From a virus (taxonomy: Duplodnaviria > Caudoviricetes), in the IMG/VR virus record IMGVR_UViG_3300010403_000007, positions 1 to 57,681 of that record: 57,681 nucleotides of DNA, one strand, 5' to 3'. The notes below the pieces were generated by a model. That model searched no databases. It saw only the letters and a list, made by a program, of their open reading frames with translations, and was not told the origin of the DNA. Each line of letters begins with the position of its first letter. Position 1 is the stretch's first letter. Below are positions 3,301 through 55,069 of the stretch, piece after piece. The translations under genes were made by a program, and so were the position numbers.

Positions 3301-4783
3301 GCGCGGGCTGGCTGGTCTTGGCGACCGCCTTCGCGACGGCTGTATCCGCGCTGGACGGCTTCGGGAGACCGTTCTTGATCAGGTCTTCGACGGCCTTCTT
3401 CACCGTCGGCTTCGGAGTTGCGTCGCCCAGCTTCGGGGCGGCAGGCTCCGCCTTCTTCAGTCCGGCGTTAGCTGGAGTGAACAGGTCCGACGGGGTCTTG
3501 CCGTCGGCGGGCTTGTAGTGCCCTGCCTGCTTGTCCCAGATGATCAGGCCCTTGTTGTGCAGGGCGTCGAGGGTGAGCTTGTTCACGCCGGGCTGTCCGG
3601 CGGCGGGGGTGAACTTCTCACCGGCAACGATCTTGGCGAGGGCTTCCTTCTGTGCCGGGCTGGACGGCTCGTTCGGGCCGCCGAGCTTCTGAGCGGGCTT
3701 GTCCGCCGCCGGAGCGGCCGGGGCCTTCTTCTCCGGCTTCGGCTTCGGGGTGTACGTCTCGGACAGCTTCGGCTTCGCCTTGTGCGCCTCCAGGGCGGCC
3801 TTGGCGTCGGCCACCTTCTTCTCGGCCGCCGACACCTTGGACTCGGCTTCGGCGACCTTCTTCGCCTGGGGGGCGAGAGCCTTCTCTTCGGCGGGGGTGG
3901 CGGGTGCCTGTTTGCGGTCGAGGCTTTCGAGGAGGTCGGTGGCCTTCTTCTGCTGTGGGCCGAACCCATCCTTTTTGATCTTGGCGAGTTCGCCCCGGAT
4001 CACGTCCTGCTCGGAACCGGACAGCGCCTCCCACTGCTCCGGCGTGATCTTCGCGGCCTTGTCCAGCTTGTACTGCGGGGTGACCTTGTCCTGTGCGATG
4101 ACCGCCGCGATGCCCTTCGACGCCACGGTGGGCTTCTTGCCCTTCGCGCCCTTCTCGTCGGTGGCGTCGGTGACCTTTACCGTCTTCACGGCCTGCCCCA
4201 GCGTGTGCTTGCCGGGCTCGTTCGTCTTCACGCCGTTGGCCTGGCTGATGGCCTTACCGGCCTCGTGCGCCTCACCGCCCGCGCTGGCCGCTTCCTTCCC
4301 GGCGTTCGGGTGGGGCTTCGCGACGATCGGCGTGAGCAGCTTCTTGGGGATCGGCTTGCCCTGCGCCTTGAGTTCCTGGATCTTCGCGACCCGCTTGGCG
4401 TTGGCTTTTGCGACCCGGGCCGCTTCGACCTGCTTCCACGCTCCGGGGGCGACCTTGTGCAGGGTGCCCTTCCAGCCCTTGCACGGGCCCGGGTGCAGCG
4501 GGTTGAGGCAGGCGGTCAGCGAGCAGGTGTCGTGGGCGTCGTCGTCCTGGTACGTCCACGCCTTCAGGGACGCGATGATCTGGTCGGTCTTGCCGAGGGG
4601 AAACGGGGCGGTTCCTGAGGCGACGGCCGCGACGATGGCGTCGTTGGCAACCTGAACGGCGATGGCGATCACGTCGAGCCCTGGCGGCGTTGCGCTGGCG
4701 TAGAGGGTGAAGGTGCTGTCCGCGGCACCGTCGAACGCGATCACGTGATAGGTGCTCTCGCTGAGGTCACCGAGCTTCGCCAT
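326..4783 (-). CDS. giant (~1,485 aa) Ala/Lys/Pro-rich protein with C-terminal VIP2/Alt-like ADP-ribosyltransferase domain; probably virion-associated
   Basis: C-terminal R-S-E motifs LLLRGT ... KGFVSTS ... GENEMLL, preceded by AIKRYT...MNNWLRG; lies in the head gene region; start taken as ATG 4783 (TATGCT 6 nt upstream). Confidence 0.85.
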   Translation of the reverse strand: MAKLGDLSESTYHVIAFDGAADSTFTLYASATPPGLDVIAIAVQVANDAIVAAVASGTAPFPLGKTDQIIASLKAWTYQDDDAHDTCSLTACLNPLHPGPCKGWKGTLHKVAPGAWKQVEAARVAKANAKRVAKIQELKAQGKPIPKKLLTPIVAKPHPNAGKEAASAGGEAHEAGKAISQANGVKTNEPGKHTLGQAVKTVKVTDATDEKGAKGKKPTVASKGIAAVIAQDKVTPQYKLDKAAKITPEQWEALSGSEQDVIRGELAKIKKDGFGPQQKKATDLLESLDRKQAPATPAEEKALAPQAKKVAEAESKVSAAEKKVADAKAALEAHKAKPKLSETYTPKPKPEKKAPAAPAADKPAQKLGGPNEPSSPAQKEALAKIVAGEKFTPAAGQPGVNKLTLDALHNKGLIIWDKQAGHYKPADGKTPSDLFTPANAGLKKAEPAAPKLGDATPKPTVKKAVEDLIKNGLPKPSSADTAVAKAVAKTSQPAHIKHAVDMANGKALGASWSKNHLAAYEKLTPEEFQTLDPDTKSKILAELKKGETKFLDPKKKAAAAALADKFSKAKTSAAPESKPAAKAPASFAKDMLNHSVSQAEAKQLADAAPISALQSVAFLRAGVSDLEDPDSPARLKSATSDAQSLTDGITSLYDSSITGQPDIKQAMAEFKKAKSAELYAKYVAEAKKKAYNKVSKTLYADSSPMVTDKLSPIEKAALLRYQKHLLDHPVKTGPAEMDDLSDEAKQAKKGLEDKLQAALKKANAPAPDKMSPAQISDRAGEILGWDAVSPSLVLTPDDLKSASSLSGDLAKQVSSGYDPAVLANPAVAAKLAVVQGLGEQYMKTTFIETHLKNHIGKNHNKTLLTGKDVNGGVLTADDKKIIALHKDQLADKYSYLPKQGADQLKQLNEAKAAFKEIADKTPVPAKPQVTLSDFDKQTIGTVYAKAWGDNALKAVSYGTTGLASAKMKEHSQYPAFSQNVTDLRELSGKVALAHAEAEAAKANVPTEPDTGIIITGGPEWKVWHQKVNERDTLESQFSGKLYAAQKQLDTIRTAAGLKKRSLPKIDSPAVKAAAAEGGYYKSASYNGPNFGKTASAKQYMAAKVGPKLGVAHLTAQDKKLGKLGNPAAPAATKAATPAAKKATGAPVTLGGGSSTANVPDAIKGSILSNFKGMPKGKYLADPTEDVFDNLVNLTAAYSKDVPGGLSVDQVLKSIDEKHSKSLGVANAHMMEKKVTDWLATPAGKAYAQANSTPDPKVVKELTGELTMPKGVTLAPGQKVQDLAGPGKFDKSLAASAFHAATSAQAKAWQDEYLKANGIVHSAKQKAAIKRYTENGLHAFTGMNNWLRGDGSFAKNVKQDVLDVQASMIPMPKHMLLLRGTGWPPDIANFQSHPEDMVGKTFEDKGFVSTSVAGSGGHFSSHPLQLTIEAPAGTPGAFVQPISAYGGENEMLLAAGLKFKVISVEQKNGKTHMRVRVVGVKTNEGV

Positions 4784-4824
4784 GCCGTCAGCATAGCGAT
4801 TGTTTTTGATCATGGTCGGCGCCG

Positions 4825-4862
4825 TTCCACGGTGTCCCGGGACGTTTCAGGACACCGTGGAA
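4825..4862. terminator. stem-loop, putative terminator after the epimerase gene
   Basis: TTCCACGGTGTCC ... GGACACCGTGGAA inverted repeat. Confidence 0.55.
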
Positions 4863-4873
4863 AAGGCCGGACG

Positions 4874-5752: not shown

Positions 5753-6354
5753 TTCTGCACCTCCGCGAGGACGAGCTGGAACGGGCCGACCGGCTCGTGG
5801 ATGAGGATGGTGAACCCGGCGCCCTGGATCAGTTCGGCGTATCCGGGCGGGTCGAATGCCCACGCGTGGCATTCGTCGTGGTTGTCGGCGTTCTCGATCC
5901 ACGGTGACGACGCGACCAGGAACCGGGAGTTCCCGGCGATCCAGGCGAGGGCTTCGGCCGGGTCGGTGAGGTGCTCCAGGACTTCGGTGACGACGGTGAT
6001 GTCCCCGAACGCGACGAGGTCCCGGTCGTCGTCACAGCCGAACACGTCGAGGGCGAACGCCTGCACCTGCCGCTGGCGCCAGCCTTCCGCGTTCGACGGC
6101 TGGAAGTCGTAGCCCCACGCCTTGACGCTGGGGCCTTTCTGGAGCAGGGACAGCAGGCCACCGTCACCGCAGCCGAGGTCGGACACGGTCGGGGATTCGA
6201 GGCGGGCGGCGGCGAGCCGGACGAACTCGGCCGCCTTCTCCAGGCGGGGCCGGTGGTGGGGCTGGTCGACGTGCGGGGCCCGTTCCCGGTGTTCGTGGAA
6301 TTCGGCGGTGGACACGTGCGCGGTGTCGCCGTCGAACAGCTTCCAGGCGGTCAC
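5749..6354 (-). CDS. class I SAM-dependent methyltransferase
   Basis: VSDLGCGDGG motif I and EVLEHL motif. Confidence 0.85.
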   Translation of the reverse strand: MTAWKLFDGDTAHVSTAEFHEHRERAPHVDQPHHRPRLEKAAEFVRLAAARLESPTVSDLGCGDGGLLSLLQKGPSVKAWGYDFQPSNAEGWRQRQVQAFALDVFGCDDDRDLVAFGDITVVTEVLEHLTDPAEALAWIAGNSRFLVASSPWIENADNHDECHAWAFDPPGYAELIQGAGFTILIHEPVGPFQLVLAEVQK

Positions 6355-7064: not shown

Positions 7065-7226
7065 CTTCTCTCCTCCGTTTTTGATCATGGTTTGCGGCGT
7101 GCTCGTATGCCATGAACATACGCTTCTCTGTCACCCGGGCGTACCGGGCGGTCGCCCGGTCCCGCGCAACCTCGCACCGGATGCCGTGACCGGGCACGTC
7201 ACAGTGCGAACGTTTGCGCAGCATCC

Positions 7227-8912: not shown

Positions 8913-9179
8913 TCACGCCCAGATCCAGACGGCCAGCAGCGCCAGGATGGCGAGCAGGAGGAGGCTGAGCACGAAGGCGGTCTTGCTGTGGCGCGAGCAC
9001 GGCAGGTCTTCGGCATGCACGGGCGCGTTGTTGAGGGCGGCGACGACCCGGGCGGCGTGCAGCGCGGAGAACATCACGCCGATGTATTCGTCACCGTCGT
9101 AGAGGTTCTGCGGCTGGTGGTGGCCGACCCGGTAGCGGGGAGCCTGTTCGGGCGCCATCTCGTCGTCGTTTTCGATCAT
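8913..9179 (-). CDS. hypothetical membrane protein
   Basis: C-terminal hydrophobic helix; ATGA overlap with the portal stop. Confidence 0.55.
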   Translation of the reverse strand: MIENDDEMAPEQAPRYRVGHHQPQNLYDGDEYIGVMFSALHAARVVAALNNAPVHAEDLPCSRHSKTAFVLSLLLLAILALLAVWIWA

Positions 9180-11113
9180 GGAATGAGGTCCCCTCGGGCT
9201 TCGTTCAGGGCGGCCTTCAGCCACTCCCTTTCGTGAGTGAGGCCGCGCTGGAGCAGGACGGTGCAGTAGTTCCCGAGCGTCGTCTCCAGGGCGTCCGGGT
9301 CGACGCCGAGCGTGGACGCCTGCTCCCGCACGTACGTCCATGCCCCGGCGAGCAGGGTCGGGATCCTCTCGCTGTTGGTGGTGACCCGGGTGTGCAGTTC
9401 GTGCTTAGGGACGCCGTAGCGGGCCCGGGCGGGGCCGGGCACAAGCTTGCCCCCGGCGATCTCCAGAGCACGCCGTACGGCGCTGTCAGCGGCGTAGAAC
9501 AGGGGCGTGCCATCCAGGACACCCGCCGACGCGGCGAGCGCTCCCAGTTTCTGGCCGCCGACCTTGCCCTGTGCGGCGTCTTCCGGCGACGGGAACTGGG
9601 GCAGGCTCCGCTCGCCCGCGTCGGCCGGTTCGGTACCCGCCTCGTCGTATCCGGGGTCGCCGGGCATCAGCGATTCCTCGGCTGGGGCCGCGTTCGGGTT
9701 GGCGATGGCGGGCAGGCCGAGGATCTCCTGGAAAGCGGGGTCGCTGGCGAACTGCGGCTGCGCCAGGACCAACTGCTTCATCAGGTGGTAGACCTGCTCC
9801 TTTTCGTTCGGGGCGTCGTCCTCGGTGAACGCGTTCGCCTCACGGACGGTCTTGTCGGACAGCAGGCCCTTGTCGGACAGCTGCATGGCCTGCTCCGACC
9901 GGTTCGGCCGGACGGCGAGGGGGGAGATGTCGAACCAGAGCGTGTACTGCTCCGGGTTTTCGACTCCGGCGGCACGCAGAGCGGGCTGGAAGTAGCCGAT
10001 GTTGAGGGCGTCAGCGAGCTGGATGAGCAGCGGTTCGACGTGGATTTTGATCGAGGATTCCTCGATCTGCCAGCCGGACCAGTGGTTCGCGGATCCCATG
10101 CCGGTGAGGACTTCCGGCGGGATGTCGAGGCTCATGGCCATGCGTTCGACGGCGGCCTTGCGCATCTCGATGATCTTGTCGCTGATCTGCGAGTCGAACG
10201 TCAGATGCTTGATCTTGTCGAGAGCCTCGGTCGGCACCTGCAGCGTGATCGGCACCAGCGCGGCGGCACTGTCACGCTGCTGCAGCGACGTGGCCATGGT
10301 CCGCTGCAGCAGGGCGGCGAACCCGTCGATGCCGGTCGGGCGGGACTCGCCCGGCACCTCCGGCTGCGTCGGGAAGTCGATGCCGTCAGGCAGCAGCAGG
10401 ATCCCCGCACCGGCCAGACGCGAGTCCAGCTCGGCGAAGATCCGCTTCGTGCACTGCTCCATCTCCCGGAGCACCGGAAGGATGGCCCGGACCGTGGAGT
10501 CGGCGGCGTCATACAGGCGCGGGTGCGGGTTCCATGCCCGGATCAGGAGATCCTTGGCCGGGTTCAGGGTGTAGGTGCCGCCGCCGTGGGTGATGGAGCG
10601 GCGAACGATGATCTCCTCGCCGCGCCGGTTCACCTGCGAGCTGGAGCAGACGTACCACTTGTCTTTCACGCCGAGCGGGTCCGGCGACGTGTCGTTGTAG
10701 CCTTCGGCGACGATGAACACGTCCCCGGCGGTCATCATGTTGATGCCCATCAGGCGCTGCGCCTGTGCCTTGCTGGCGGGGCTGCCGAACATCTTCTCAG
10801 CGATGGCCCGGACGCGTTCGTCGGTGGCCTCGTCGCCTACGACACCGTCCTTGGAGATGACCGCCCCGTACATGCGGCACCGGGACAGGGCGGACCCGAT
10901 CCAGTTGACGACGAATCGCATCTCGCCGCAGATGTCGTAGTGGCGCCACGCTTCCAGCTGCCAGCGGTGGTCACCGAGCTTGAACATCTGCCAGCTGGAT
11001 GCGTCTTTGAGGTCGATCGGAACGGCGGCGCCGACGAGCGCGTTGGCCGGTCGCGTGCCGGGGCCGTTCTCTCCTCCGGCCGGAACGGTCTTGCGCTTGG
11101 TCAGCAGCCCCAC
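9176..11113 (-). CDS. portal protein
   Basis: 645 aa; WQLEAWRHYD, SRLAGAGIL, LDIPPEVLTG, NHWSGWQI motifs typical of actinophage portals; upstream of MuF. Confidence 0.85.
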   Translation of the reverse strand: MGLLTKRKTVPAGGENGPGTRPANALVGAAVPIDLKDASSWQMFKLGDHRWQLEAWRHYDICGEMRFVVNWIGSALSRCRMYGAVISKDGVVGDEATDERVRAIAEKMFGSPASKAQAQRLMGINMMTAGDVFIVAEGYNDTSPDPLGVKDKWYVCSSSQVNRRGEEIIVRRSITHGGGTYTLNPAKDLLIRAWNPHPRLYDAADSTVRAILPVLREMEQCTKRIFAELDSRLAGAGILLLPDGIDFPTQPEVPGESRPTGIDGFAALLQRTMATSLQQRDSAAALVPITLQVPTEALDKIKHLTFDSQISDKIIEMRKAAVERMAMSLDIPPEVLTGMGSANHWSGWQIEESSIKIHVEPLLIQLADALNIGYFQPALRAAGVENPEQYTLWFDISPLAVRPNRSEQAMQLSDKGLLSDKTVREANAFTEDDAPNEKEQVYHLMKQLVLAQPQFASDPAFQEILGLPAIANPNAAPAEESLMPGDPGYDEAGTEPADAGERSLPQFPSPEDAAQGKVGGQKLGALAASAGVLDGTPLFYAADSAVRRALEIAGGKLVPGPARARYGVPKHELHTRVTTNSERIPTLLAGAWTYVREQASTLGVDPDALETTLGNYCTVLLQRGLTHEREWLKAALNEARGDLIP

Positions 11114-12512: not shown

Positions 12513-12543
12513 TTCGGCTCCCTTTGTCGGTCTGTCCGTGGAC

Positions 12544-12585
12544 AGCATACAGCCCCCTTGACGTGAATGTCAAGGGGGCTGTATG
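12544..12585 (-). promoter_or_regulatory. promoter TTGACA-N18-TATGCT embedded in a perfect 17-bp inverted repeat
   Basis: CATACAGCCCCCTTGAC-GTGAAT-GTCAAGGGGGCTGTATG. Confidence 0.7.
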
Positions 12586-13344: not shown

Positions 13345-13479
13345 GCTGTCTCCTCCTGAAGTAACTGTCTATGCATAGCATACACCATGCGTCAATCTCA
13401 CTACCCGTATACCGTTTCCCGGGCCATCTCAAAAACTGGGATGTAGGGCCGTGAAAAACGGCACCCGTTTAACTCTGTG

Positions 13480-13554
13480 TGACACGGCCGGGATTCGAAC
13501 CCGGACCTTCCCCCTTCTTCGCCAGGGGACGCTCTCCCGTTGAGCCACCGTGCC
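13480..13554 (-). ncRNA. tRNA-like RNA with enlarged (9-11 nt) anticodon loop
   Basis: Acceptor GGCACGG/CCGTGTC-A, D arm GCTC-AACGGGA-GAGC, T arm CCGGG-TTCGAAT-CCCGG; anticodon arm TCCCC-TGGCGAAGAAG-GGGGA. Confidence 0.8.
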
Positions 13555-15846: not shown

Positions 15847-15938
15847 CCCGTCTCTCCGGGGTGTCACAAGCGCCTACGCCTGTCTCCGGGCATCTTGCCG
15901 CACCGGATTTTAGGTCCGGTACGACCTGTTGCGATACG

Positions 15939-18085: not shown

Positions 18086-19543
18086 TTAGTACGGCGAGGA
18101 CACCGGCATAAAGACGTCCGTCGGCGGCGCGGCCACCTTCACCAACTTGTTCTCCTTGCCCATCAGGAACAGACCGGCCTGCACGAGCGCGTCGATACGG
18201 TCGGGGCTGGCCGCCTCGCCGGGCACCCAGGTGCACTGCTGGTCCTCCAGCTCCAGGAACGTGCCGACGTGCTTGACGCGACCCTGCTCGTAGCGGGCGG
18301 CGACCGGTTCGGCGCGCAGCTTCTTGCCCGCCAGGGAGGTGACTTCGCGGATCGGAACGGGCCCGGGTTCGAACAGGCATCCGTCGCACTCGTCGGGGTC
18401 GCGGCAGTCGGGGGCGTGTTCGCGCTGCATCTCCCGGTAGGCGTCGGTCATGACCTGCATGAGCCACTTCTTGCCCATGTTCGTTTCGATGATCAGCCAG
18501 GTGGCGCCTTGCTGGCGAAACATCTCCCAGGCGCGGCGGGCGGCGGCGTTGCCGACGAGCTTGCAGGTCCAGTCGGCCAGGACGTAGTCGTTGCCGTCGT
18601 AGCCCCGGCCGACGGCGAGCAGGCCGGTCTCGTCTCCGGCTCAAGTGGCGCCGGGGTCCATGGAGACGACGACCTGCTTGAGTTCGGGGAGGTCGGAACG
18701 CTTCACCCGATTGTTTTCGATCATGGGCCGGGTCCACAGGGCGCCCTCGATCTCTTCCAGCAGGTGCCCGTACAACTCCTGAAGCCCGGCCCGGGTGCCC
18801 TCGTAGAGCTTCTTCAGTTCTTCGACGACGTGCTTCGACAGGTTCATGATGTTGTCGAAGATCGAGCCGGTCGTGATGACCACGGTGCCGTCGGTCTTGT
18901 GCTGCCATTCGATCAGCAGCTTGATCGGCTTCGGGGTAGTCGTGACGACGGCGCGGGGATGGTCGTCGATCAGCGGGGCGCGCAGCGACGGCAGGATGCC
19001 CTCGTACCAGGCGGCGTACGTGTACCGCCACTTCGCCAGCTCGTCGGCCCACAGCCCGGCCAGGTTGAAGCCACGGCCGACGTCGGCGTTGTCGGCGCCC
19101 TCGAAGTAGATGAGCTGACCCGACGCGAACGTGATCATCAGCTTCGGGCTTTTGTTGTACGTGAAGTCGCGGCCCTTCTTCATCCCCATGCGGGCGAGGA
19201 TGGAAAGGATGCCGGAGTTGCCCTCGATGCAGGCCGTGCGGCAGTCGTTGAGGGTTTCGGCGATGACGAGCCACTCGGTGCGCTGGCCGACCATGTCGAC
19301 CGGGTGCTGGAAGACGCGGTCGAGGAGATCCTCGGCGCCGGTGCGGGTCTTGCCCCAGCCACGGCCGGACCGGATGAGCCAGACGAGCCAGTCGCCGGGC
19401 GGCCGGAACTGCTCGGGGCGACCGACCCACCACCAGGCGCCCTTCTCGATGTCGTCGAGGGTGTGGCGCTGCTGTGCGGCGAGCCAGCGGCGGCGCAGCG
19501 GGGCGGGGAGCAGGGCGAGCTTCTGTGCGGCGGACAGGCTCAT
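18086..19543 (-). CDS. terL: terminase large subunit, interrupted by an in-frame TGA at 18641-18643
   Basis: Walker A GRGWGKT, Walker B LWADE, VTTTP motif C, LQELYG; nuclease VSMDPGAT*AGDETG ... IIETN ... SPDRIDA in the same frame. Confidence 0.9.
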
Positions 19544-19661
19544 GATCGAAAACTATCCGAGTAGGCCGCTTCCAGGGCTGGGACTCCCCTCCGCCCGTCG
19601 CGCGGTGCCCGGGGGGTGCCGGGCTGCCCGGCACGCGGCACACCCCCGGCCGCGCTCGCCA

Positions 19662-20755: not shown

Positions 20756-20781
20756 CGTCTTCTCCTCGTTTTTGATCATGG

Positions 20782-21628: not shown

Positions 21629-22002
21629 CCTTTGGCCTCTCGCTCGTTTTCGATCATGATCTGGCGGGGGCAGCGGGTGTACCGGCACGGGTCGTCCCGG
21701 AACACGTGCTCGTACGTGTCGGCGTCTTTGCGGTGGTGGAACGCCCAGTGCTTCAACCCGCCGGGGTGGCCGCAGGACGAGCGGACCCACCACGAGAAAG
21801 AGTCGTCGCGCGGTGAGTTCTGTTCCGGCGGCCACTGCCCGTCGGGCATGGGCCTTATCAGCCACGTGACACCGGCCGACGACGTCGGCGCGTCGGACCC
21901 GATCCACTTGCCGGAAGGGGCCGAAGCCCAGCTCTCCGAGGGGAGAGCCGGGCTCTGGCGTGCTTCGTTCAGTTCTCGTTTGGTACGGCGCTTCTCGGTC
22001 AC
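21625..22002 (-). CDS. hypothetical protein
   Basis: Coupled ORF with Cys/His motifs. Confidence 0.5.
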   Translation of the reverse strand: MTEKRRTKRELNEARQSPALPSESWASAPSGKWIGSDAPTSSAGVTWLIRPMPDGQWPPEQNSPRDDSFSWWVRSSCGHPGGLKHWAFHHRKDADTYEHVFRDDPCRYTRCPRQIMIENEREAKG

Positions 22003-22781
22003 TGCCAGGCGGGCAGGGCCGAGGTGCGGCGCCGCTGGTTGTAGAGGTTGGTGATCGCCCAGGCGATCTGGGTGGACAGGTTCCCGGACCGGGCGAGTTT
22101 CTGGCCCCGGGCGTAGCCGACGAGGGCGTCCGGGCCGCCCGGCGAGGCGGCGAGCCGCTGCGCGAGATCGGTCAGGTTGACGGCGCTGCCGTACTTGGCG
22201 AGCATCCGGCCGAGACCTTCGACCATGGCTCCCTGAACGGCCGCCGGGATGTGCCCGTAGGCGGACGTCAGGGTGGCGATGGTCGCGGCGGCAGCATTCG
22301 GGTCCAGGGCGTAGACACGCTCCAGGGCCCGGATGGCGGAGATCTTCCCGGTGGCGGTGCTGGTCGCCAGGGTCCAGCCGTTGTCGGTCAGGACCCGACT
22401 CAGGAAGAGGGATTCGGGGCGGCCCTCGATGCAGGCGACGAAGAACTGGTCGACGGGGGAGACCTTCTCGGTGGCGTTCAGCTTCCGGAAGAGGGCGGCT
22501 TCCTGCGGGATGCTGAGGCCGTGGTACTCGTTGGTCGTGATCAGGTCGGTGTATCCGGCGGCCTCGGCGGCCTCGTAGCGGTGCTGGCCGTCGATGATGT
22601 GGATGCGTTCGGCGGACCGGTACGAGGTGGTGAGCACGCCGAGGGCGGCCGGGGTGAAGTCGGCGGCCATCTTGGCGACACGGCTGCGCTTGATGGCGCG
22701 CTGGACCTGCGGGTCGACCCAGAGTTCGCCGACCTTGCGGTTGACGATGGTGTGGGTGACTTCGGCCGGGGGGTTGATCAT
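21999..22781 (-). CDS. ParB/Srx-superfamily (DUF6551-like) protein
   Basis: VDPQVQR, IIDGQHR and EAALF..LN motifs. Confidence 0.75.
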   Translation of the reverse strand: MINPPAEVTHTIVNRKVGELWVDPQVQRAIKRSRVAKMAADFTPAALGVLTTSYRSAERIHIIDGQHRYEAAEAAGYTDLITTNEYHGLSIPQEAALFRKLNATEKVSPVDQFFVACIEGRPESLFLSRVLTDNGWTLATSTATGKISAIRALERVYALDPNAAAATIATLTSAYGHIPAAVQGAMVEGLGRMLAKYGSAVNLTDLAQRLAASPGGPDALVGYARGQKLARSGNLSTQIAWAITNLYNQRRRTSALPAWQ

Positions 22782-23719
22782 GACTGGATGTGCTCCTTCA
22801 TGCCGTTGATGACCTTCTCGATGTCCCGGCGGATCTTCATCAGCCGGGCGTGGACCGGCGCGACCTGTTCCGAGGTCAGGCCGGGGTTCGGGGTGCCGAG
22901 CTGGGTGAGGCCGTCGGTCAGGCCCTCCAGTTGCGGCAGGATGCGATCCCAGCTGGCCCGCTGCTTCGCGGGGGAGGCCGGTTCCGTGGGCGGCGCCAGG
23001 CGAGCCCGGGTGCTGCCGTTCGGGCGTTTGACGATGAGCGAGTCGTAGCTGGCCCAGATGCTGCTCTTACCCTCGTCCAGAGCGATCATGGCGGCGGCGG
23101 CACGTTCACGCCGGTCCGCCGGGAGAGCGGCGTCGTTGATCATGCGGTGGATCATGTGCAGGCGCGACGCGGTCGCCTCGGCCATGCCGAACGGCTCACC
23201 GAGAACACCCATCAGGTACTCGGCGGCGGTGCCCTTGTTCTTGGAGCGGCCCGCTTTGCGCTGGCCGAGTTGAGTCTGCTTGCGCAGCTCGACTCCCCGG
23301 CGCCGCGCTTCGTTGCGGCGCACGGCGGCCGCCGGTGCGTCCAGCTCGATCAGGACGTCCCAGAGGCGGCACATCTCCGACGGGAGCAGCGGGACGGCCA
23401 GGTGCTCGTTGCCGTTGTCCGAGAGCAGGCGCTTGGCCGCATCCTCGATCGTGTCGACGGTCACAGCGGGGATCGTGGTCCTGTTGAGCGACACGCAAGC
23501 GCGAAGGCGCCGGTATCCGGAGACCAGGGTCCCGTCGGACCAGATCGTGATCGGGATCAGCAGGCCCTCTTTCTCGATGCTGTCGATCAGGTCGGCGCTG
23601 GCCGCGTAGTTGGAGTTGGAGTCGTTGCGGATCAGCGGGACGTTCACGTCCGCGACAGGAACAGGCTTCTCGGGTCCCACGGGCGCCTTCTCTCGCAGTA
23701 TGTCTTTCAGGGTTTTCAC
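22778..23719 (-). CDS. ParB N-terminal domain protein
   Basis: LIDSIEKEGLLIPITI...LVSGYRRLRA. Confidence 0.75.
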   Translation of the reverse strand: MKTLKDILREKAPVGPEKPVPVADVNVPLIRNDSNSNYAASADLIDSIEKEGLLIPITIWSDGTLVSGYRRLRACVSLNRTTIPAVTVDTIEDAAKRLLSDNGNEHLAVPLLPSEMCRLWDVLIELDAPAAAVRRNEARRRGVELRKQTQLGQRKAGRSKNKGTAAEYLMGVLGEPFGMAEATASRLHMIHRMINDAALPADRRERAAAAMIALDEGKSSIWASYDSLIVKRPNGSTRARLAPPTEPASPAKQRASWDRILPQLEGLTDGLTQLGTPNPGLTSEQVAPVHARLMKIRRDIEKVINGMKEHIQS

Positions 23720-24386: not shown

Positions 24387-24767
24387 ATGAGCAAGGTCAG
24401 CTACAAGACCCTGTGGCGGGAGGTCAGTGACGAGCGCGACCGCCTCGCAGCGGAAATCACCCGGCTGAAAGAGCGCATCGAGCACATCAACGGCCTGATC
24501 GCCGCAAGCCGCAACGACCTGGCCGAATCCCGGCCGCTCGTCGACCTCGCCGGGATCGCCCGGCACATGCGGGCCGCCCGCTACACCCCGCAGCAGTGGT
24601 CCCAGCGTGGCCTGCTGCCGCCCGTCGACTTCCCCGAGATCAAAGAGCCGCTCTGGTACGCGGCCACCGTCCGGGATCAGTTCGCCATCCCGACCGGCAG
24701 GCCCTGGTACGACCACCCGGAGGACGTGCCGGAGGATGCGCCCGAGGCACTGTCCCCTGTAGCCTGA
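24387..24767 (+). CDS. putative DNA-binding protein (coiled coil + HTH-like)
   Basis: LVDLAGIARHMRAARYTPQQW...PLWY; first gene of the divergent plus-strand operon. Confidence 0.55.
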   Translation: MSKVSYKTLWREVSDERDRLAAEITRLKERIEHINGLIAASRNDLAESRPLVDLAGIARHMRAARYTPQQWSQRGLLPPVDFPEIKEPLWYAATVRDQFAIPTGRPWYDHPEDVPEDAPEALSPVA

Positions 24768-30225: not shown

Positions 30226-30479
30226 TCGCCCGGTCGCGGCGGCACCGGTTCGGTCGGCGGCGCGTCGGCGTGGTGCTTCGGCCCCGCCGGACCGCCGTCG
30301 ACCGGACCGGCCCGGTCCACGTCACGCTGACCCTGTCGTACGGCATCCGGCCCATGCCGCAATCGTTTTTGATCATGCCCGGGGATAGTCAGCTCGCGCT
30401 CATCCCCGCCGTCCACGAGACCGCCAACGGCCGTGAGGTCGTATCCGTTCCCGTCGTCATCAACGTCCGCGTAGCCTGA
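30222..30479 (+). CDS. hypothetical protein
   Basis: GTGA-coupled ORF. Confidence 0.4.
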   Translation: MIARSRRHRFGRRRVGVVLRPRRTAVDRTGPVHVTLTLSYGIRPMPQSFLIMPGDSQLALIPAVHETANGREVVSVPVVINVRVA

Positions 30480-31046: not shown

Positions 31047-31447
31047 CCTTCGAAGCGGCCAAGGCCCTAGCTCAAGCCCGCTCAAACGGCTTCTGTGAGG
31101 GCTGCGGCTTTTCCGGACCCCTGGACCCGCACCACCGCATGACCCGTGGCTCCGGGGGCGTACACGGCGCGGCGGCGGCCGATTCCAACAACGTGCGCAA
31201 CCTGCTGATGCTGTGCCGGGTCTGCCACGACTACACGCTCTCTGACGCCGGGGCGTGCATCGCCATCGGCTGGGTGGTCGAGCGCCGATCCGGAATCGAC
31301 CCACGTGAGGTCCCCGCCCGGATCTACACCATCAACGGCCGGGGATGGTGGGTTCTCACCGAGGATGCCGGATACCAGTGGGATGACGTGGCCAACGCAG
31401 ACCCCTGGTTCGAGCTGAAGTACAAGATCGAAAACGAGGAGGCTTAA
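31043..31447 (+). CDS. HNH endonuclease
   Basis: CEGC...HHR...NLLMLCRVCH. Confidence 0.85.
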   Translation: MTFEAAKALAQARSNGFCEGCGFSGPLDPHHRMTRGSGGVHGAAAADSNNVRNLLMLCRVCHDYTLSDAGACIAIGWVVERRSGIDPREVPARIYTINGRGWWVLTEDAGYQWDDVANADPWFELKYKIENEEA

Positions 31448-33035: not shown

Positions 33036-33379
33036 GTGGCGTTCTCCTCCCTGTCTGCTGCAACCATACGCTCGGCGGCGTTCTGATCCCGGCGGCCCTT
33101 CAGCTGAAGATCGAAAACGAGCCAGCTGCGCCACGCCAAGACGATCGGGAAGCCGACCGCGAACGTCAGCGTCCGAGTCCACACGAACCACGGCGGGTCG
33201 AACAGGTGCGCGACCGACCACATGTCCAGCACCCATGCGATGACGAGCATGTACCAGAAGACGTGCCAGCCGCCCCGGGACGCCCAGAAGCGGGCCATCA
33301 GGGCGAAGCCCAGGAATCCGATCGTGGCGATCACGGCGGAGAGGTAGAGGCCGAACGTGCCGACTTCCTGTGGCGTCAT
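33032..33379 (-). CDS. membrane protein (putative holin)
   Basis: Three TM helices, in the lysis cassette. Confidence 0.6.
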   Translation of the reverse strand: MTPQEVGTFGLYLSAVIATIGFLGFALMARFWASRGGWHVFWYMLVIAWVLDMWSVAHLFDPPWFVWTRTLTFAVGFPIVLAWRSWLVFDLQLKGRRDQNAAERMVAADREENAT

Positions 33380-35167: not shown

Positions 35168-36396
35168 GCGAAGTAGTCCGAAATCTTGAAGGCGGACAGG
35201 GCCGCGTATTTGACCGTGTAGGTGGCCAGGGTGTTGCTGAATACGACGTTCGACGTGACCGTCACGGTCGATGCCGGGTCCGTCGAATAGCAGAGGTACG
35301 AGACGCGCCCGGATCCGCCCCGGCCGTTGTCGTTGGCGTTCGTCGCGTTGATCCTCATGTTGATGCGCGGGCCGCCGCCGAATCCCGGGCCGCCCGTGAT
35401 CTGCAGCTGCCCGTCAGTCAGGCTGAGGACACCCTGCATCTCGAATTCGAACTGCACCATCCAGATCCCGGTCGGCAGCAGCAGCGACGTCGGGACGTAG
35501 CCGAGATTGGTGGACGTGCCGATGTTGAATTCAGTCGTGTTGTAGACGGGGTTGTACGAGCCCGTCGTGGGGCTGACCGTGAAGTTGGAGGCGCTGACCC
35601 GCACGCGCGGAAACAGCCCGGCGAGGGAGATGCGCGGATCGAGGGTGGTCATGGCCGCGTCGGCACCGACGGCCAGGGACTGGATGACGGTCTGCTGCGG
35701 GTATGCGACGGACGGGTCGGCGCACATCGGATCCGTCCCGGCGGGAATCGCCAGGCCGTACGTCTTCGCCACAACGTTTTGGATCTTGGCGGTGATCGTT
35801 CCCGGACTCGCCTGCTCGTCCCGGGCGAACGGCCCCGCCTGGTTCCCCGCCACGTACTGCGTCAACGTCGCATCGGTCGCCGTGGCCATCCAGCCACCCG
35901 GCTCCGTGCCGCCCACCACCCACAACTTGCTGCGCAGCACATGGGCCTGCAGCGCGTTCGACCAGAACGACACCACCCGCAGGTTGTAGACGACGTTTGC
36001 CACGTACGTGAGACCGGTCGCCACGGTCGCCACCGTCGAAAGGCCGCCGCCGACACCCTTCGAGAAGCGCAGCGAGATCGCCCCGCCCGTGGCCACCAAC
36101 ATCGTCGCGTTGTAGTAGTTGTTGACGTCGGCCCGCTTGAAGATGAACCCGACCGTCATCAGGTTCGACGCCGGGATGCCCGTCAGCGACACCTGGCCGG
36201 TGATGTCGATGTCGGTCGTCTGCCGGTCGACCCATCCGTACCGCTCGGCCGTCGCCGTCGGCAGGATGTTGGCCGTGCCCGGGGTGACGCTGTACTGCGA
36301 CGCGGTGCCCTGCAGGCTGTACACCTGGCCGGAGGTGGCCGTGCCGAATCCGCTGGCCACAGTCCGGTTGAAGTTGTCGTTGTAGCCGGTGATCAT
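35164..36396 (-). CDS. minor tail protein
   Basis: DNFNRTV..GFGTA.SG; beta-rich; tail region. Confidence 0.6.
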   Translation of the reverse strand: MITGYNDNFNRTVASGFGTATSGQVYSLQGTASQYSVTPGTANILPTATAERYGWVDRQTTDIDITGQVSLTGIPASNLMTVGFIFKRADVNNYYNATMLVATGGAISLRFSKGVGGGLSTVATVATGLTYVANVVYNLRVVSFWSNALQAHVLRSKLWVVGGTEPGGWMATATDATLTQYVAGNQAGPFARDEQASPGTITAKIQNVVAKTYGLAIPAGTDPMCADPSVAYPQQTVIQSLAVGADAAMTTLDPRISLAGLFPRVRVSASNFTVSPTTGSYNPVYNTTEFNIGTSTNLGYVPTSLLLPTGIWMVQFEFEMQGVLSLTDGQLQITGGPGFGGGPRINMRINATNANDNGRGGSGRVSYLCYSTDPASTVTVTSNVVFSNTLATYTVKYAALSAFKISDYFA

Positions 36397-42830: not shown

Positions 42831-43207
42831 TTGCGCCGCCGGACGGTCGCCGCCTTCTTCGGTCCCGCCGGGGCGCCCGAGCCGTTGAACCTTTCGCCCG
42901 CGATCCGGATCGAATCGAACACGTCCTCGATCGGCACGGACCCGTCGATCATGGCCTCTTCGAGCCATTCCTTGTCGTCGTCTTTGACGATCATGGCGTC
43001 GACGATCGAGCCGATCGTGCCCATGTTCCGGACGAGCTTGGCGGTCATCTCCTCACGCATCTCCTGCGTGATGTCCGACTCCGCAACGTTTTCGATCTTG
43101 GGCAGGCTGCGGACGACACGGGACAGGACGACCAGTGCGCCCTCGGTCGGCTTGCGCATCTCGATCTGGCGGCCACCGAGCGGCACCAGCACCGTCAGTT
43201 CGCTCAC
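42827..43207 (-). CDS. tail assembly chaperone (first)
   Basis: Position and size. Confidence 0.55.
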   Translation of the reverse strand: MSELTVLVPLGGRQIEMRKPTEGALVVLSRVVRSLPKIENVAESDITQEMREEMTAKLVRNMGTIGSIVDAMIVKDDDKEWLEEAMIDGSVPIEDVFDSIRIAGERFNGSGAPAGPKKAATVRRRK

Positions 43208-43887: not shown

Positions 43888-44089
43888 CAGGGATCTCCCG
43901 GCCCGGCTCCTCGTCCTGGAGCACGCGCAAGTAGCCGGTCGCGACGTGCTTCTGCGCCCAGTCGTCGTCGGCGGCCGAGAAGAAGTCGCCCTTGTCGAGT
44001 CCGTCGAAGCTGACCAGCACCTCGTACCGGTTCTCCCTGGCGGGCGCCTTCTGTGCTTCGTTTTCGATCTTGGCCACCGGGTCCTCCAT
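43856..44089 (-). CDS. hypothetical protein
   Basis: Coupled 77-aa ORF. Confidence 0.5.
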   Translation of the reverse strand: MEDPVAKIENEAQKAPARENRYEVLVSFDGLDKGDFFSAADDDWAQKHVATGYLRVLQDEEPGREIPDGEQGHISPR

Positions 44090-46659: not shown

Positions 46660-47352
46660 TTAGGACGCGCAGCCGCACGAGGCGGCGGGCGGTGCCAAAT
46701 ACGTCCACTGCAGGTGCCGGTGGGTGTCGCTCGGAAGTGCGACGAGCAACTTCTGCGCGACACCGGTCGTCATGTTCGCCAGGACGTTCTTCGGGCCGGT
46801 GCCCCAGCCGGTGCCCTGCTTGGTACGGCCCATCACCGTGAAGCTGACCGCACCGTTTTCGATCTTGAGATCTCCGACGGTCCCCTCCACCACGTTCGGC
46901 AGCAGGAAGTACCCGTACGGGGTCAGCGAGAACGTACCGACGGTCGTGCACGTCGAACCGGAAAGGTTCGTCCACACTTCCAGCCCGAACGCCCCCGCCG
47001 CGTAGTTGCTGGTCCGCGTCTGGAAACCGACGGCGGCCGGAGAGGCCGCGTCGTTGAGGACCAGCGTCGAGCCGGTGACCAGGTTGAACAGCTCCGGGTC
47101 GACGTTGCAGAAGGTGATCGTGACATCGATCCACTTCAGCTGCTTCGGGGACTTCTCGTTGACGCACATCAGACCGGCGGCGTTCTGGACGATGATCTCC
47201 GTCCCGGACTCCACCTGATCCTGCATCTCGACGGATACAAAGCCGGACGAGACGGCCGACACGCAGGATCCCACGGAAGGGGTGCCACACGAGTTGACCG
47301 CCTGGACCCGCATGGTCGTGCCCTGGATCGGGGCCTGACACACGGCAACCAT
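46660..47352 (-). CDS. major tail (tube) protein
   Basis: MRV...CG, SGFVSV, NAAG..CV, FCNVDP, GLEVW. Confidence 0.8.
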   Translation of the reverse strand: MVAVCQAPIQGTTMRVQAVNSCGTPSVGSCVSAVSSGFVSVEMQDQVESGTEIIVQNAAGLMCVNEKSPKQLKWIDVTITFCNVDPELFNLVTGSTLVLNDAASPAAVGFQTRTSNYAAGAFGLEVWTNLSGSTCTTVGTFSLTPYGYFLLPNVVEGTVGDLKIENGAVSFTVMGRTKQGTGWGTGPKNVLANMTTGVAQKLLVALPSDTHRHLQWTYLAPPAASCGCAS

Positions 47353-47355: not shown

Positions 47356-47712
47356 TTACTCCTTCGGTTCCTTGCCGGTCCGCTCCTTGCGTCCCGGCGT
47401 GGTGTCGGAGCTGGCCGGAGCCTTCTCCGTCTCGTTTTCGATCTTGGCCTCGTCGGGGACGGTACCCAGCTCGGCCCGCTTCGCGCTGTCGTCCGGCCAC
47501 CGGTCGGAGCGATCCGCGTTGAACTCGTCGGCCACGTCCTGCGGGACACGGAACGACAGGGCGGCATCGTGCTCTCCGCGCTGCGCCTCCACGACCCGGA
47601 AGCTGTAGCCCTTCTCGTCGGCGATCTCCAGCAGGCGCCCGGCGGTCGCACCCTCCGGCTCGTGCTGGTCGACGATGACGACGGCGATCTTGTAACCCTG
47701 CTCAACAGCCAT
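47356..47712 (-). CDS. hypothetical protein
   Basis: LLEIA...FRVP motif. Confidence 0.6.
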   Translation of the reverse strand: MAVEQGYKIAVVIVDQHEPEGATAGRLLEIADEKGYSFRVVEAQRGEHDAALSFRVPQDVADEFNADRSDRWPDDSAKRAELGTVPDEAKIENETEKAPASSDTTPGRKERTGKEPKE

Positions 47713-50658: not shown

Positions 50659-50750
50659 TCCTCGAACACTCGGCCGGACCGTAGCAAGCACCGATGCGTC
50701 TGGACCGGATCATAGCCGGTAACCTGCGGTTCCTGGAGGAGGAGGTTCAT

Positions 50751-53026: not shown

Positions 53027-54562
53027 CTACTCCACCAGGGTGTCGAGCAGATCACCCATGGCCTCATCGTATTCCGATCGCAGGTCGGGCGCCGTGGCCC
53101 CGGCCACCAGCTCCGCCCACTCGGCCGCCACAGAAGCCCTCAGGGCCGCTTCCTGCTGCTCCAGGAACAAGCCCCGGGCGATGGCGCGACCCAGCTCCTC
53201 CGTGTCCGGCATCCCGGCCTGTGCGGGCGCGGGCGCCTCGTCAGCGACGAGAGCGAGCGCCCCGGCCGCGACGAGGGAGAACATGTCGTCCTCGGCGGCC
53301 GACGCGACCAGCATGCGCGGGATCGGGAACCCGGCCGTGTTCACGTGCAGCGCGGCGACCATCTCCAGGTTGCCGCCGATCCGGCGCCAGTCCCCGGACA
53401 GCGGGGTGGACCGCATCGACCGGACGGCGGCGTCGTCGGCTTCGGGAACGAGTGCCCCGGCGACCCAGATGCCGTGCTCGTCTTCACCGGCACGCACGAT
53501 GGCGCCGGTGTTGTTCGAGTTGTCGTAGTGCTCGGCGGCGGCCCGGTAGCCGAGGTTCGGCCCGGCGTGCCCACCGGCCCCGTACGTGAGGCGCCCGACA
53601 GGGATGCGGCTGCCGTCGGCGGTGATGGTTTCGCCGGTGTGGAAGTACGCGTAGTCGGTCTGCGACTTGGGCGGCTTCACGCACGACGATCCGATGCCGA
53701 CGTGGCAGGTGTCCCAGACGGCGACGTGCCCGTAGACGCGGCCGTCTTCGCCGATGTGCATGGGGGTGGGCCCGGCGAGCTTCGGGTCTTCGAACCATTC
53801 GCGGGGTGGCGCGGCCGGGGCGGCGGCGGCCATGAGTGAGCGCATCTTGTCCCGGGCCTCCTGTTCGTACGTCATCTCGTCGTCGTTTTCGATCTTGGTC
53901 TTGAACTCGACGTCGACCATGTAGCCGCCCGCGACTGTGGTCTCCGCGATCGGCTCCGGCGCGGCCTTCGGCGCCTTCGCCGGGGTGAGTACGGCCTCCC
54001 CGGCCAGCTCGGCGAACGCCGGGATGTGCACGAGGGTTGCCGACGCGAAGCGGCCCTTGCGGACCATCTTCAGGCGCGGCCCGTCGTACGCCTCTTCCGC
54101 GAAGACCGGCTCGACCGTGTCGCCGCAGCCGCAGTCGGATCCGGTCTTGCTGGCGTGCGCCATCTTCGCGGCCTTGATCTTGCCGCGCTGCTCCCGCTTC
54201 CAGTCCGCGTACGCCTTCGGTTCCGGCACGTGTTCCATCTCGGCCTGATCCAGGTCGACGGACGGGCCGATCACCTTGTTCTGAGTGAACTTCATCGCGG
54301 CGATGGCGTGGTTCCGGACGTCCTCGGGCCACTCGTCGTCGTCGTAGAACTCGCCGGACGCGGGCAGCATCCCGTCGGTTTCCTTGCCAACCTTGCTGAT
54401 GTGCCCGACGATCACGGCGTTCTGATGGCCACCAGAATCGCTCGGGACGTACCGCAGGGGCAGCGGCAGGTCGCGGTGCGACAGTGCGCCCTCGTCGAAC
54501 TGGCGGCCGTCGCCGGTCGGCTTGCCGATGACGGCGAGCGGCATCTTCCAGGCAGTGCCCAC
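53027..54562 (-). CDS. capsid maturation protease
   Basis: TGDGR, LPLPL, PSVDLD, ATLVHIPAF, GRVYGH.A.W..CH, HYD, LSGDWR, VNTAGFP. Confidence 0.85.
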   Translation of the reverse strand: MGTAWKMPLAVIGKPTGDGRQFDEGALSHRDLPLPLRYVPSDSGGHQNAVIVGHISKVGKETDGMLPASGEFYDDDEWPEDVRNHAIAAMKFTQNKVIGPSVDLDQAEMEHVPEPKAYADWKREQRGKIKAAKMAHASKTGSDCGCGDTVEPVFAEEAYDGPRLKMVRKGRFASATLVHIPAFAELAGEAVLTPAKAPKAAPEPIAETTVAGGYMVDVEFKTKIENDDEMTYEQEARDKMRSLMAAAAPAAPPREWFEDPKLAGPTPMHIGEDGRVYGHVAVWDTCHVGIGSSCVKPPKSQTDYAYFHTGETITADGSRIPVGRLTYGAGGHAGPNLGYRAAAEHYDNSNNTGAIVRAGEDEHGIWVAGALVPEADDAAVRSMRSTPLSGDWRRIGGNLEMVAALHVNTAGFPIPRMLVASAAEDDMFSLVAAGALALVADEAPAPAQAGMPDTEELGRAIARGLFLEQQEAALRASVAAEWAELVAGATAPDLRSEYDEAMGDLLDTLVE

Positions 54563-54598
54563 GCGCTACCCCTTTCTCTTTGCTGGCCAGGATACGGG

Positions 54599-55039
54599 TC
54601 AGGCTTGCGGGTTGTCCTTGATCGGGCGGGGCCGGACGGCATCCGGCTGGCGGTCCTCGATGGGGCGACCGAAGTTCGGGCCGATCCGGTTGTCCAGCAG
54701 CGGCGGATCGACGACTTCCTGCGGGCGCGGAACGGATCCGGCACGGCCGGTGTCGTTGCGGATGCCAGCACGCATGGCCGCATCCTTCACGGCGATCAGG
54801 CCGTTGATGGCCGTGGTCAGCTCCGGCGGGTCCAGGCTGATCTCCTGGATCAGCTGGCACGCCGCCTCGTACAGGGGAGCGCTGAAACGCTGAAGGTTCG
54901 CAGGCAGGTGGCTGTAGCAGAGCCACTGAAGGCCGTCACGGATTCCGGCGAACCGGCCGACGGTCAGGGCTTCAGCGTGATCGGGGGTGCCGTGGTTCTT
55001 CGGGCCGTCGGCGGTGAGTATGGGCAGGTACTCGGGCAT
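54599..55039 (-). CDS. hypothetical protein, Acb2/Tad1-like helical hairpin possible
   Basis: YSHLPANLQRFS.P...PELTTAINGLIAVKDAAMRA. Confidence 0.5.
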   Translation of the reverse strand: MPEYLPILTADGPKNHGTPDHAEALTVGRFAGIRDGLQWLCYSHLPANLQRFSAPLYEAACQLIQEISLDPPELTTAINGLIAVKDAAMRAGIRNDTGRAGSVPRPQEVVDPPLLDNRIGPNFGRPIEDRQPDAVRPRPIKDNPQA

Positions 55040-55069
55040 GGCTCTCTCCTCCTGGTTTTTGATCATGTT

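Follow-up and report, generated by a model that had tools for sequence, protein, structure and literature searches.

A dispersed, oriented 13-base word in a clade of tailed phages: a candidate operator- or stoperator-like site for a phage DNA-binding regulator

Oriented words dispersed over a genome are known from a few cultured actinophage clusters, and only for the stoperators of cluster A has a mechanism been worked out. The subject of this study is such a word, the 13-base CAWGATCRAAAAC, in a 57,681-bp virus genome (Duplodnaviria; Caudoviricetes) of 67% G+C, the complete IMG/VR record IMGVR_UViG_3300010403_000007, which was analysed over its full length and is called the window below. The 13-mer is selected as nucleotides, in both orientations, and is specific to a phage clade. 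We tentatively interpret its copies as operator- or stoperator-like sites for a putative phage DNA-binding regulator of late genes, a reading to which we give somewhat less than an even chance.

Stoperators, which are bound by L5 gp71 or by the TipsytheTRex repressor, are asymmetric 13-bp words with more than 15 dispersed copies; their orientation correlates with transcription, they lie both at promoters and far away, and they are specific to their clade and nearly absent from hosts (PMC9283540, in the part of the article available). The word in the window is like them in each of these respects. It differs in its sequence, which is unrelated, in the concentration of its copies in late blocks, and in that one-third of its contexts are intragenic in one reading frame; for this count and all later ones, 142 exact copies in 11 genomes were treated as 68 independent contexts. 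A further difference is that the clade has no integrase, parABS or recognisable immunity repressor. Pfam and PHROGs searches, which covered the genes of 11 genomes (those of the window and the families found only in relatives) and the open reading frames (ORFs) in the gaps of the window, detected neither an integrase nor a ParA, and likewise no member of a known repressor family, sigma factor or RNA polymerase; a repressor outside the known families would have escaped them. The lineage looks lytic. A sequence-only reading of this DNA had called the word stoperator-like; the asymmetric, dispersed and oriented word agrees with that description, and the searches gave no sign of a lysogeny-type system of the cluster A kind, with integrase, repressor and ParA.

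A second described system, from lytic actinophages, is the 18-bp repeat of Microbacterium cluster EC, which has about 12 copies in one orientation upstream of ribosome-binding sites, several of them among accessory genes between terminase, portal and capsid; its function is not explained in the available part of the report (PMC7302621). Cluster EI phages, which also bear repeats according to the same part of that report, are the nearest named relatives of the window's capsid protein, at about 37% identity. The EC repeat has another sequence and length, and its copies are described there only in intergenic gaps, 21–30 bp from starts; in the present clade copies are often intragenic, and conserved reversed ones occur as well. 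Near gene starts, the SAS/ESAS elements of cluster K mycobacteriophages and Microbacterium cluster EF are likewise 13 bp, asymmetric, in one orientation, clade-specific and absent from the host (PMC3203893 and PMC7302621, as far as available). SAS, as given in those sources, has a Shine-Dalgarno (SD) core, lies 3–7 bp from the start and serves non-structural genes, whereas our 13-mer has no SD core, lies 9–20 nt upstream of starts or within genes (30 contexts), and is found mainly in structural blocks.

The third comparison is with dispersed sites of ParB-fold proteins. Plasmid RK2 has 12 OB sites. The KorB–OB system of RK2 and the Noc–NBS system resemble the situation here in that a ParB-fold NTPase with a DNA-binding domain is encoded without its partner, in that the 13–16-bp sites are dispersed, some at promoters and some kilobases away, and in that global transcription control has been proposed (PMC11790492, available part). 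OB, NBS and parS are palindromes, whereas the present 13-mer is asymmetric and oriented; no KorA-like partner was identified in the phage, and binding by a phage protein is a prediction.

The 15 exact copies listed in the sequence-only reading were all recovered at the coordinates and on the strands given there, 13 on the minus and 2 on the plus strand; dinucleotide shuffles of the window gave an expectation of 0.00. When one mismatch was allowed, 18 copies were seen against 0.08 expected. These include the two one-mismatch copies listed earlier, at 3971(−) and 33106(+), and a third, CAAGATCCAAAAC at 35776(−), absent from that list. An unbiased k-mer scan ranked GATCGAAAAC first among the 10-mers of the window (8 seen, 0.04 expected), and in a scan of four genomes GATCGAAAAC and GATCAAAAAC were top-ranked, alongside the ribosome-binding word. 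Two codon-preserving tests of 200 shuffles each were then applied. Synonymous-codon shuffling within genes left a mean of 5.31 copies (standard deviation 1.22, maximum 9), and codon-order shuffling a mean of 3.0, equal to the three copies in sequence that was not shuffled; the observed count was 15. The refuting condition set in the sequence-only reading, a count no higher than in such shuffles, therefore did not hold. The earlier observation of a real, dispersed and oriented signal was thus confirmed; its interpretation as a whole was partly supported.

Codon usage within the copies was equally distinctive. By the window gene calls, all sense copies within genes read in frame as K/M-I-E/K-N. 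In the proteins called from 11 related genomes, 174,780 residues altogether, [KM]I[EK]N was counted 94 times against 1.3 predicted from composition, and eleven control peptides occurred 0–9 times. The Glu codon within the peptide was GAA in 76 of 78 cases, compared with 21.9% genome-wide; the second Lys codon was AAA in 15 of 16, compared with 6.5%; and the preceding base was C in 81 of 84. Codon usage and the codon-preserving shuffles agree with the earlier claim that the word itself forces the recurring KIEN, MIEN and MIKN peptides, and together with the antisense codons described below they led us to reject a peptide-level motif such as a protease site. They also bear on the view that the word has no function of its own and is a by-product of a common peptide or a selfishly spreading sequence. 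That view can point to the major tail protein, in which KIEN is present in 11 of 11 genomes, even in the two that use GAG and so lose the DNA word, and to some non-homologous copies that share at least 20 bases. It must account for rare codons used almost without exception, for copies in non-coding DNA and in antisense, and for a count far above amino-acid-preserving shuffles. Codon usage, the antisense copy and the shuffles leave it close to refuted, and we give it next to no weight.

The antisense copies were particularly informative. In the tape-measure gene, one antisense copy reads V-F-D-L in the gene and is written GTT-TTY-GAT-CTT in 10 of 10 genomes, with three rare codons (usage of 6.2%, 10.7% and 4.8%). 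The reversed copy at the terL ATG is present in 8 of 10 genomes. Because models that act on sense RNA fail on these selected antisense copies, recognition of the 13-mer as double-stranded DNA is favoured. Sense copies also persisted where the surrounding protein did not: in the portal/protease-like gene, the linker has gapped and variable flanks and yet retains ATCRAAAACGA in 11 of 11 genomes. A sense copy in the tape-measure gene was gained or lost among genomes through amino-acid changes.

Three coding explanations were discarded. A −1 frameshift signal was rejected from sequence, because the ATC-AAA-AAC frame gives no X-XXY-YYZ heptamer and the G variant is not slippery. In-frame N-terminal extension from an ATG within the word is not a general rule, as every one of the three frames is represented among the distances to downstream starts. 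Nor is internal initiation at the ATG that follows the protease-linker copy general, since TTC stands there in 3 of 11 genomes.

The distribution of the word was examined in 15 IMG/VR loci that encode a capsid protein 61–77% identical to that of the window. Exact copies numbered 6–18 in each of ten relative contigs and 3–11 in four further fragments, so that 14 of the 15 related contigs hold the word; the most distant relative (61% capsid identity, outgroup contig G414) has zero exact copies in 27 kb. Some contexts are common to as many as 10 genomes, and many occur in a single genome; therefore copies have been gained and lost. Another 59 loci were fetched through the DGQHR ParB-like protein. 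At 50% identity or more to this protein, 24 of 24 loci carry the core, with 2–9 copies each; at 43% or less, 0 of 35 have an exact copy, and the loci of distant ParB-like homologues showed tandem or coding repeats and no comparable dispersed word. A 14-base scan of viral contigs gave, among the matches listed, one per contig except for two contigs with two. No close named relative was found by megablast among 50,697 phage records.

A host protein, such as a nucleoid-associated protein or transcription factor, could in principle own the site, with the phage exploiting it, and the sequence-only reading had named a host nucleoid or partition factor as one possibility. In its favour, the phage readers discussed below are candidates, and the lone genome match of the capsid protein, the one hint of a host genome, is a 3.4-kb contig of an Umezawaea metagenome-assembled genome (MAG). 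Copies were found in 97 of 401 genomes of the class Actinomycetes, never more than five per genome and not clustered; the Umezawaea MAG has 2 copies of the 13-mer in 10.8 Mb; and the nearest outgroup phage lacks the motif. (The 401 genomes include one unpublished genome, G383, with one match, on which no result rests.) We therefore regard a host factor as very unlikely. A Chi-like or regulatory word of the host was rejected on the rarity of the word in the genomes searched, the 401 and the Umezawaea MAG; the strong over-representation in the host that characterises Chi was not seen in these genomes.

In the outgroup contig G414, a candidate alternative motif proved to be terminator hairpins. 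Its early region (L175:14258-17550) contains repeated ACACCCCC-TTGC...GCAA-GGGGGTGT hairpins beside GTGTATGG-like words, and these look like terminator-promoter cassettes.

Alignment of the 68 contexts defined the extent of the word. G stood at position 14 in 85% of them, A at position 15 in 57% and T at position 16 in 41%; positions 3 and 18 (W3/N18) did not covary, nor did any further out, and nothing upstream of the 13-mer was conserved. The 13-mer is therefore asymmetric, with only a weak dyad contributed by G14, A15 and T16. The extension to a degenerate palindrome proposed in the sequence-only reading was borne out only in part: A15 and T16 are less well kept than G14, and no covariation extends beyond them. 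The comparison with parS did not hold up, an asymmetric 13-mer being no parS-type palindrome. CATG forms of the word prevail near starts (32 T and 12 A) and CAAG forms inside genes (49 A and 17 T), which is what tolerance for Met versus Lys would give. At position 8, A is more frequent in one subclade (G000, G005 and G008) than in the other seven relatives. Many copies lie at module boundaries beside accessory genes. Methylation at GATC by Dam, or GATC avoidance, was rejected as an explanation: the 450 GATC sites correspond to an observed/expected ratio of 1.0. An RNA hairpin AUCG-AAAA-CGAU was not supported, since the pair C7–G14 had a probability above 0.5 in just 16 of 68 contexts and showed no covariation.

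Orientation followed the genes for the most part. In the window, 14 of the 17 copies listed earlier agree in direction with our gene calls, as had been claimed; those at 19541(+), 30365(−) and 33106(+) are the only ones that run against the gene. In gene regions on the majority strand, 40 contexts were sense and 9 antisense. By absolute strand, a tally of the orientation rows gave 48 contexts on one strand and 18 on the other. In 24 of the 68 contexts a same-strand start follows within 45 nt, and in most of these the end of the 13-mer is 9–20 nt from that start.

To place the word relative to promoters, we mapped two kinds of promoter-like sequence. TAnnnT hexamers peaked at 6–7 nt from start codons (34 cases in 11 genomes) and again at 20–37 nt, and four control hexamers showed no such peaks; the nearer peak suggests that leaderless transcripts are widespread in the clade. 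The families with TAnnnT at 6–7 nt include terL, the tape-measure gene, the giant ADP-ribosyltransferase gene and family 10 (for example, window 19544-19555). The second sequence, TGTATGCT followed after 7 nt by GACA and often preceded at 17–18 nt by TTGAC, occurs at five sites in the window compared with 0.08 by chance; the TGTATGCT-N7-GACA parts lie at 12533-12551, 13366-13384 and 17909-17927 on the minus strand and at 27158-27176 and 30827-30845 on the plus strand. Each of three mapped relatives has 4–7 such sites, 20–37 nt before early or middle gene starts; most likely these sites serve the phage as host-type promoters, and their initial transcribed sequence is conserved. These canonical promoters occupy the early block and the gap between terL and portal, where the 13-mer is absent or scarce; the 13-mer occupies the virion and packaging blocks in a complementary distribution.

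TAnnnT was nearly absent around copies of the 13-mer, with two exceptions. The first is the giant ADP-ribosyltransferase gene, where the order hairpin, 13-mer, 6–7 nt, TAnnnT, 6 nt, ATG was found in 6 genomes, representing two subclades with differing hexamers. In the window the exact copy at 4802..4814(−), with a hairpin immediately 5' of it, lies 6 nt 5' of TATGCT (4795-4790), itself 6 nt before the ATG (4783-4781). The second is terL, where the reversed exact copy at 19541..19553(+) overlaps the ATG (19543-19541) and the TAnnnT element, as had been noted from the sequence. Read on the terL strand it is TAGTTTTCGATC-ATG, that is, TAnnnT, 6 nt, ATG, so that the word supplies most of TAGTTT-TCGATC-ATG; one relative that lacks the word here has TAGCTT-GATCAC-ATG in the same position. 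At both of these genes the word thus falls on core promoter positions. The distance from the terL-start copy to the internal terL copy is 828 bp in 8 genomes, including the window.

The 13-mer is not a sigma-70 promoter of the ordinary type: it has no TTGACA-like −35, its first base is C rather than T, and the canonical promoters are a different conserved motif. It might instead be the core of a late or middle promoter, with CAWGAT as a −10-like element (A at −11, T at −7), CRAAAA as A-rich discriminator and C13/G14 as start; host RNA polymerase would use it after being redirected by a phage factor that has escaped recognition. An asymmetric one-block site with no upstream information, the sense bias, the G after C13 in 85% of contexts, and the near absence of TAnnnT around motif-proximal starts would all fit, as would the distribution complementary to canonical promoters. 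A similar arrangement is the oriented 18-bp motif upstream of ribosome-binding sites in lytic cluster EC (PMC7302621, available part), and the conserved −10 of the capsid gene, TATGATC, has ATGATC in common with the motif. Several results speak against a promoter core, however. The gene searches yielded no sigma factor, RNA polymerase or known appropriator; the hexamer would lie 14–27 nt from the start, compared with 20–37 nt for TAnnnT, at times with no room for a leader ahead of the ribosome-binding site; the antisense copies under selection would drive transcription against terS and within the tape-measure gene; a separate TAnnnT stands beside or under the motif at two genes; the best-conserved copies are deep within core genes; and the capsid gene has no copy upstream. 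We judge this explanation unlikely.

The capsid gene, 48763-50658(−), has a stretch of about 90 nt upstream (within 50659-50830) that is conserved in all 11 genomes. It holds GGTACCnGCTATGATC, with a −10-like TATGAT, and then a conserved leader, ATCGGTGCTGCCACGGTCCGGCCGAGCGCTCG, and stands back to back with the ribosome-binding site of a divergent gene; no 13-mer lies upstream of the capsid gene.

Under the operator- or stoperator-like reading that we tentatively favour, the word, extended to about 14–16 bases as CAWGATCRAAAAC-G-a-t, would be a cis-acting double-stranded DNA site read by the clade's own sequence-specific DNA-binding protein, and the bound protein would control how host RNA polymerase transcribes the late blocks, those for virion and packaging. 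At terL, where the site spans −10 to +3, the protein would occlude or modulate RNA polymerase as at an operator; the same would apply at the giant ADP-ribosyltransferase gene, where the site would span about −31 to −19. At some 12 other sites, within late genes or between them, it may form an oriented roadblock to elongating polymerase, as stoperators do, or those sites may be loading points from which a clamp of the ParB/KorB type reaches promoters. If the two ParB-fold proteins described below act as a hetero-pair, the asymmetry of the site would be explained.

Four proteins are candidate readers, tied to the word solely by their co-occurrence with it in the clade. The first, 22778..23719(−), has a ParB/Noc/KorB fold, is core in 10 of 11 genomes and carries a GxRRxRA-like box, of which G68, R70 and R71 are invariant. 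The second, 21999..22781(−), is a DUF6551/DGQHR ParB-fold protein, also core in 10 of 11. Models of the two were predicted with confidence scores (predicted local distance difference test, pLDDT) of 88 and 89, and Foldseek matched them to Noc, ParB and KorB at E values of 5e-7 and 2e-4 over about 195–290 alignment columns; the root-mean-square deviations were high, which fits a different domain arrangement in the models. The predicted folds thus agree with the claim, made earlier from the sequence, of two ParB-like genes. More than 100 protein clusters of such genes were found in the clade, with homologues on at least 100 contigs of about 57 kb, and a phage DUF6551 fusion binds CTP/ATP in vitro (PMC12704722, in the part available). 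The third candidate, 24387..24767(+), is the first early gene (126 aa, no family match, in 10 of 11 genomes), and its sequence suggests a coiled coil and possibly a helix-turn-helix (HTH). The fourth, 56662..57111(−), present in 7 of 11 genomes, matches HTH_17 weakly, with an E value of 2.9e-4 and a score below the Pfam cut-off. A sequence search of three small proteins against PDB chains gave nothing useful. The two core, NTPase-like proteins of ParB/Noc/KorB fold (21999-23719) appear to be the most plausible readers, with the small, possibly HTH-containing proteins as alternatives.

A more elaborate version, which we consider unlikely on balance, would make the word part of a system that serves timing or silencing across the genome of a lytic phage. 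A ParB/KorB-fold hetero-pair would load at an asymmetric, half-parS-like site of 13–16 bp, which the phage writes into its late genes despite codon bias, and act on host RNA polymerase according to orientation, and replication might titrate the complex and so release late expression. Full-text literature searches gave no published counterpart of an oriented ParB-type clamp system, and no publication that describes the 13-mer.

A number of results weigh against the operator- or stoperator-like reading. The classical purpose of stoperators, lysogeny, is missing where 11 genomes have no integrase, repressor family or ParA. A recognisable −10 element is touched by only 3–4 of 68 contexts. Set against the site locations in cluster A, there are two promoter overlaps and 24 start-proximal contexts, yet 23 contexts are intragenic in sense and 7 intragenic in antisense; stoperators are described as intergenic in the available part of PMC9283540. 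Known sites of ParB, KorB and Noc are palindromic, whereas the 13-mer has a weak dyad at most. In gene regions on the minority strand the ratio was 9 sense to 8 antisense, which fits a partly strand-oriented model better than a purely transcription-oriented one. An SD-like word follows the 13-mer in 7.3 of 23 intragenic contexts, compared with a baseline of 11.7%, which hints at a role in RNA or in the initial transcript.

The last two of these results are claimed by rival explanations. The 9:8 ratio is what an absolute strand preference on top of a coding preference would give, and with the 48:18 split it could mark a strand-specific DNA transaction: nicks, or a packaging, replication or recombination signal, perhaps read by the core HNH endonuclease. 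Site-specific single-strand nicks are reportedly present in T5 and Pseudomonas phage tf. The presence of the HNH gene in 11 of 11 genomes and the copies at module boundaries beside accessory genes would agree with such a transaction; about one-fourth of the contexts are on the other strand, no precedent was found in the actinophage literature, and the promoter overlaps would have to be coincidence. We think it decidedly unlikely.

The SD-like words would suit an mRNA signal near ribosome-binding sites, either an unstructured A-rich standby or enhancer patch for the ribosome or a site at which a phage RNA-binding protein binds or cleaves. Such a signal would also account for the sense bias, for the start-proximal contexts, of which 17.8 of 24 have an SD-like word after the 13-mer, and for the A-tract, predicted to be unpaired at 0.91 compared with 0.41 for the flanks. 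It would not account for the antisense copies selected despite codon bias or for reversed copies at the starts of opposite-strand genes. Spacing and frame to the downstream start vary, the local hairpin is predicted in few contexts, and in compact genomes any intergenic word comes close to a ribosome-binding site. We accord this explanation little probability.

On the operator- or stoperator-like reading, and more generally, the word matters because a large clade of uncultured soil phages keeps it under measurable selection, even in core virion genes and in antisense, with no sign of lysogeny. Four named candidate proteins and a defined site of 13–16 bp make a clean testable case, which bears on how late expression is organised in a lytic phage that relies on host RNA polymerase and on whether orphan phage ParB-fold proteins have sequence-specific, genome-wide targets. 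For annotation, the word yields spurious ATG starts and recurring peptides.

The remaining copies in the window fall into several settings. Four minus-strand exact copies stand close to the next start. At 7077..7089, GGAGGAG follows directly, and the ATG of the glycosyltransferase-like gene 6351-7064 lies 12 nt past the end. The copy at 20768..20780, upstream of terS, begins one base past the stop of gene 20782-21159 and is followed by GAGGAG and an ATG. At 55055..55067 the copy comes right after a stop codon and is followed by CAGGAGGAG, with the ATG of gene 54599-55039 15 nt past its end, and at 21646..21658 it lies in the final codons of gene 21625-22002, with the next start 17 nt downstream. 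The copy at 9168..9180(−) overlaps both the portal stop (TGA, 9176-9178) and the ATG of a small ORF, 8913-9179.

Sense copies within genes are exact at 18713..18725(−) in terL, where the copy (M-I-E-N) occupies the same codons in 10 of 10 aligned terL genes; at 43088..43100(−), K-I-E-N in gene 42827-43207, retained in 9 of 10 orthologues in a stretch that bears indels; at 44060..44072(−), near the 5' end of gene 43856-44089; at 46855..46867(−) in the gene for the major tail protein, a copy that 8 of 11 orthologues have; at 47434..47446(−) in gene 47356-47712; at 53885..53897(−) in the hypervariable linker of the portal/protease-like gene 53027-54562; and at 31423..31435(+), at the 3' end of the HNH endonuclease gene 31043-31447. 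Two sense copies have one mismatch: CAAGATCAAAAAG at 3971..3983(−), in frame in the 1495-aa gene, and CAAGATCCAAAAC at 35776..35788(−) in gene 35164-36396, a variant found once in each of 8 relatives. The exact copy at 30365..30377(−) is antisense in the plus-strand early region, and the one-mismatch copy GAAGATCGAAAAC at 33106..33118(+) is antisense in a holin-like gene.

Genes in the window were called with a codon model and then checked by Pfam and PHROGs. The late genes form one long minus-strand set that runs from about 24.2 kb down to 1 and continues from 57.7 kb to 31.4 kb. In order, it comprises the two ParB-like genes, terS, terL, small genes with two tRNA-like genes, portal and a MuF-like gene; then sugar/methyl-transferase-like genes and the 1495-aa protein with a terminal ADP-ribosyltransferase domain; and then an ADP-ribosylglycohydrolase, the portal/protease-like, capsid, tail and tape-measure genes, and the lysis genes. 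The early block, on the plus strand at 24.4–31.4 kb, encodes an Erf recombinase, a replication initiator and an Ltp-like lipoprotein, and a two-gene plus-strand island lies at 50.7–52.3 kb. DUF397 and WDGH domains point to an actinomycete host. Positions 1–123 and 57559–57681 are a terminal overlap of 123 bp; its place in the middle of the late gene set makes a circular map with an assembly overlap a likelier explanation than a physical end. Within this repeat, at 100-129(−), is a perfect TTGACA-18-TACTAT promoter-like site directed towards gene 57290-57616.

In terL there is a single in-frame TGA, 18641-18643(−), at a position where 9 relatives have Gly, within DPGA(T/S)-G-x-(G/S/N)DETG. The gene is otherwise one continuous frame, which aligns over 486 positions, at 83% identity, with the TerL of a relative (475 aa), and no other gene appeared interrupted; a nonsense variant, a sequencing error or recoding might each explain the TGA. 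Genes related to ADP-ribosylation abound in the clade (326-4813(−) and 55255-56409(−) in the window; L030:7940-8503, L034:3606-4073, L030:12450-17993 and L041:9444-9662 in relatives): an ADP-ribosyltransferase domain ends a protein of 1495–1847 aa beside the MuF-like gene, an ADP-ribosylglycohydrolase is also encoded, and single relatives have Macro, NADAR, NUDIX and Tad2-like (Thoeris anti-defence) domains. The two tRNA-like genes lie at 13479-13554(−) and 15938-16009(−); one was called with a four-base anticodon (cgaa) and the other as tRNA-Gly(acc).

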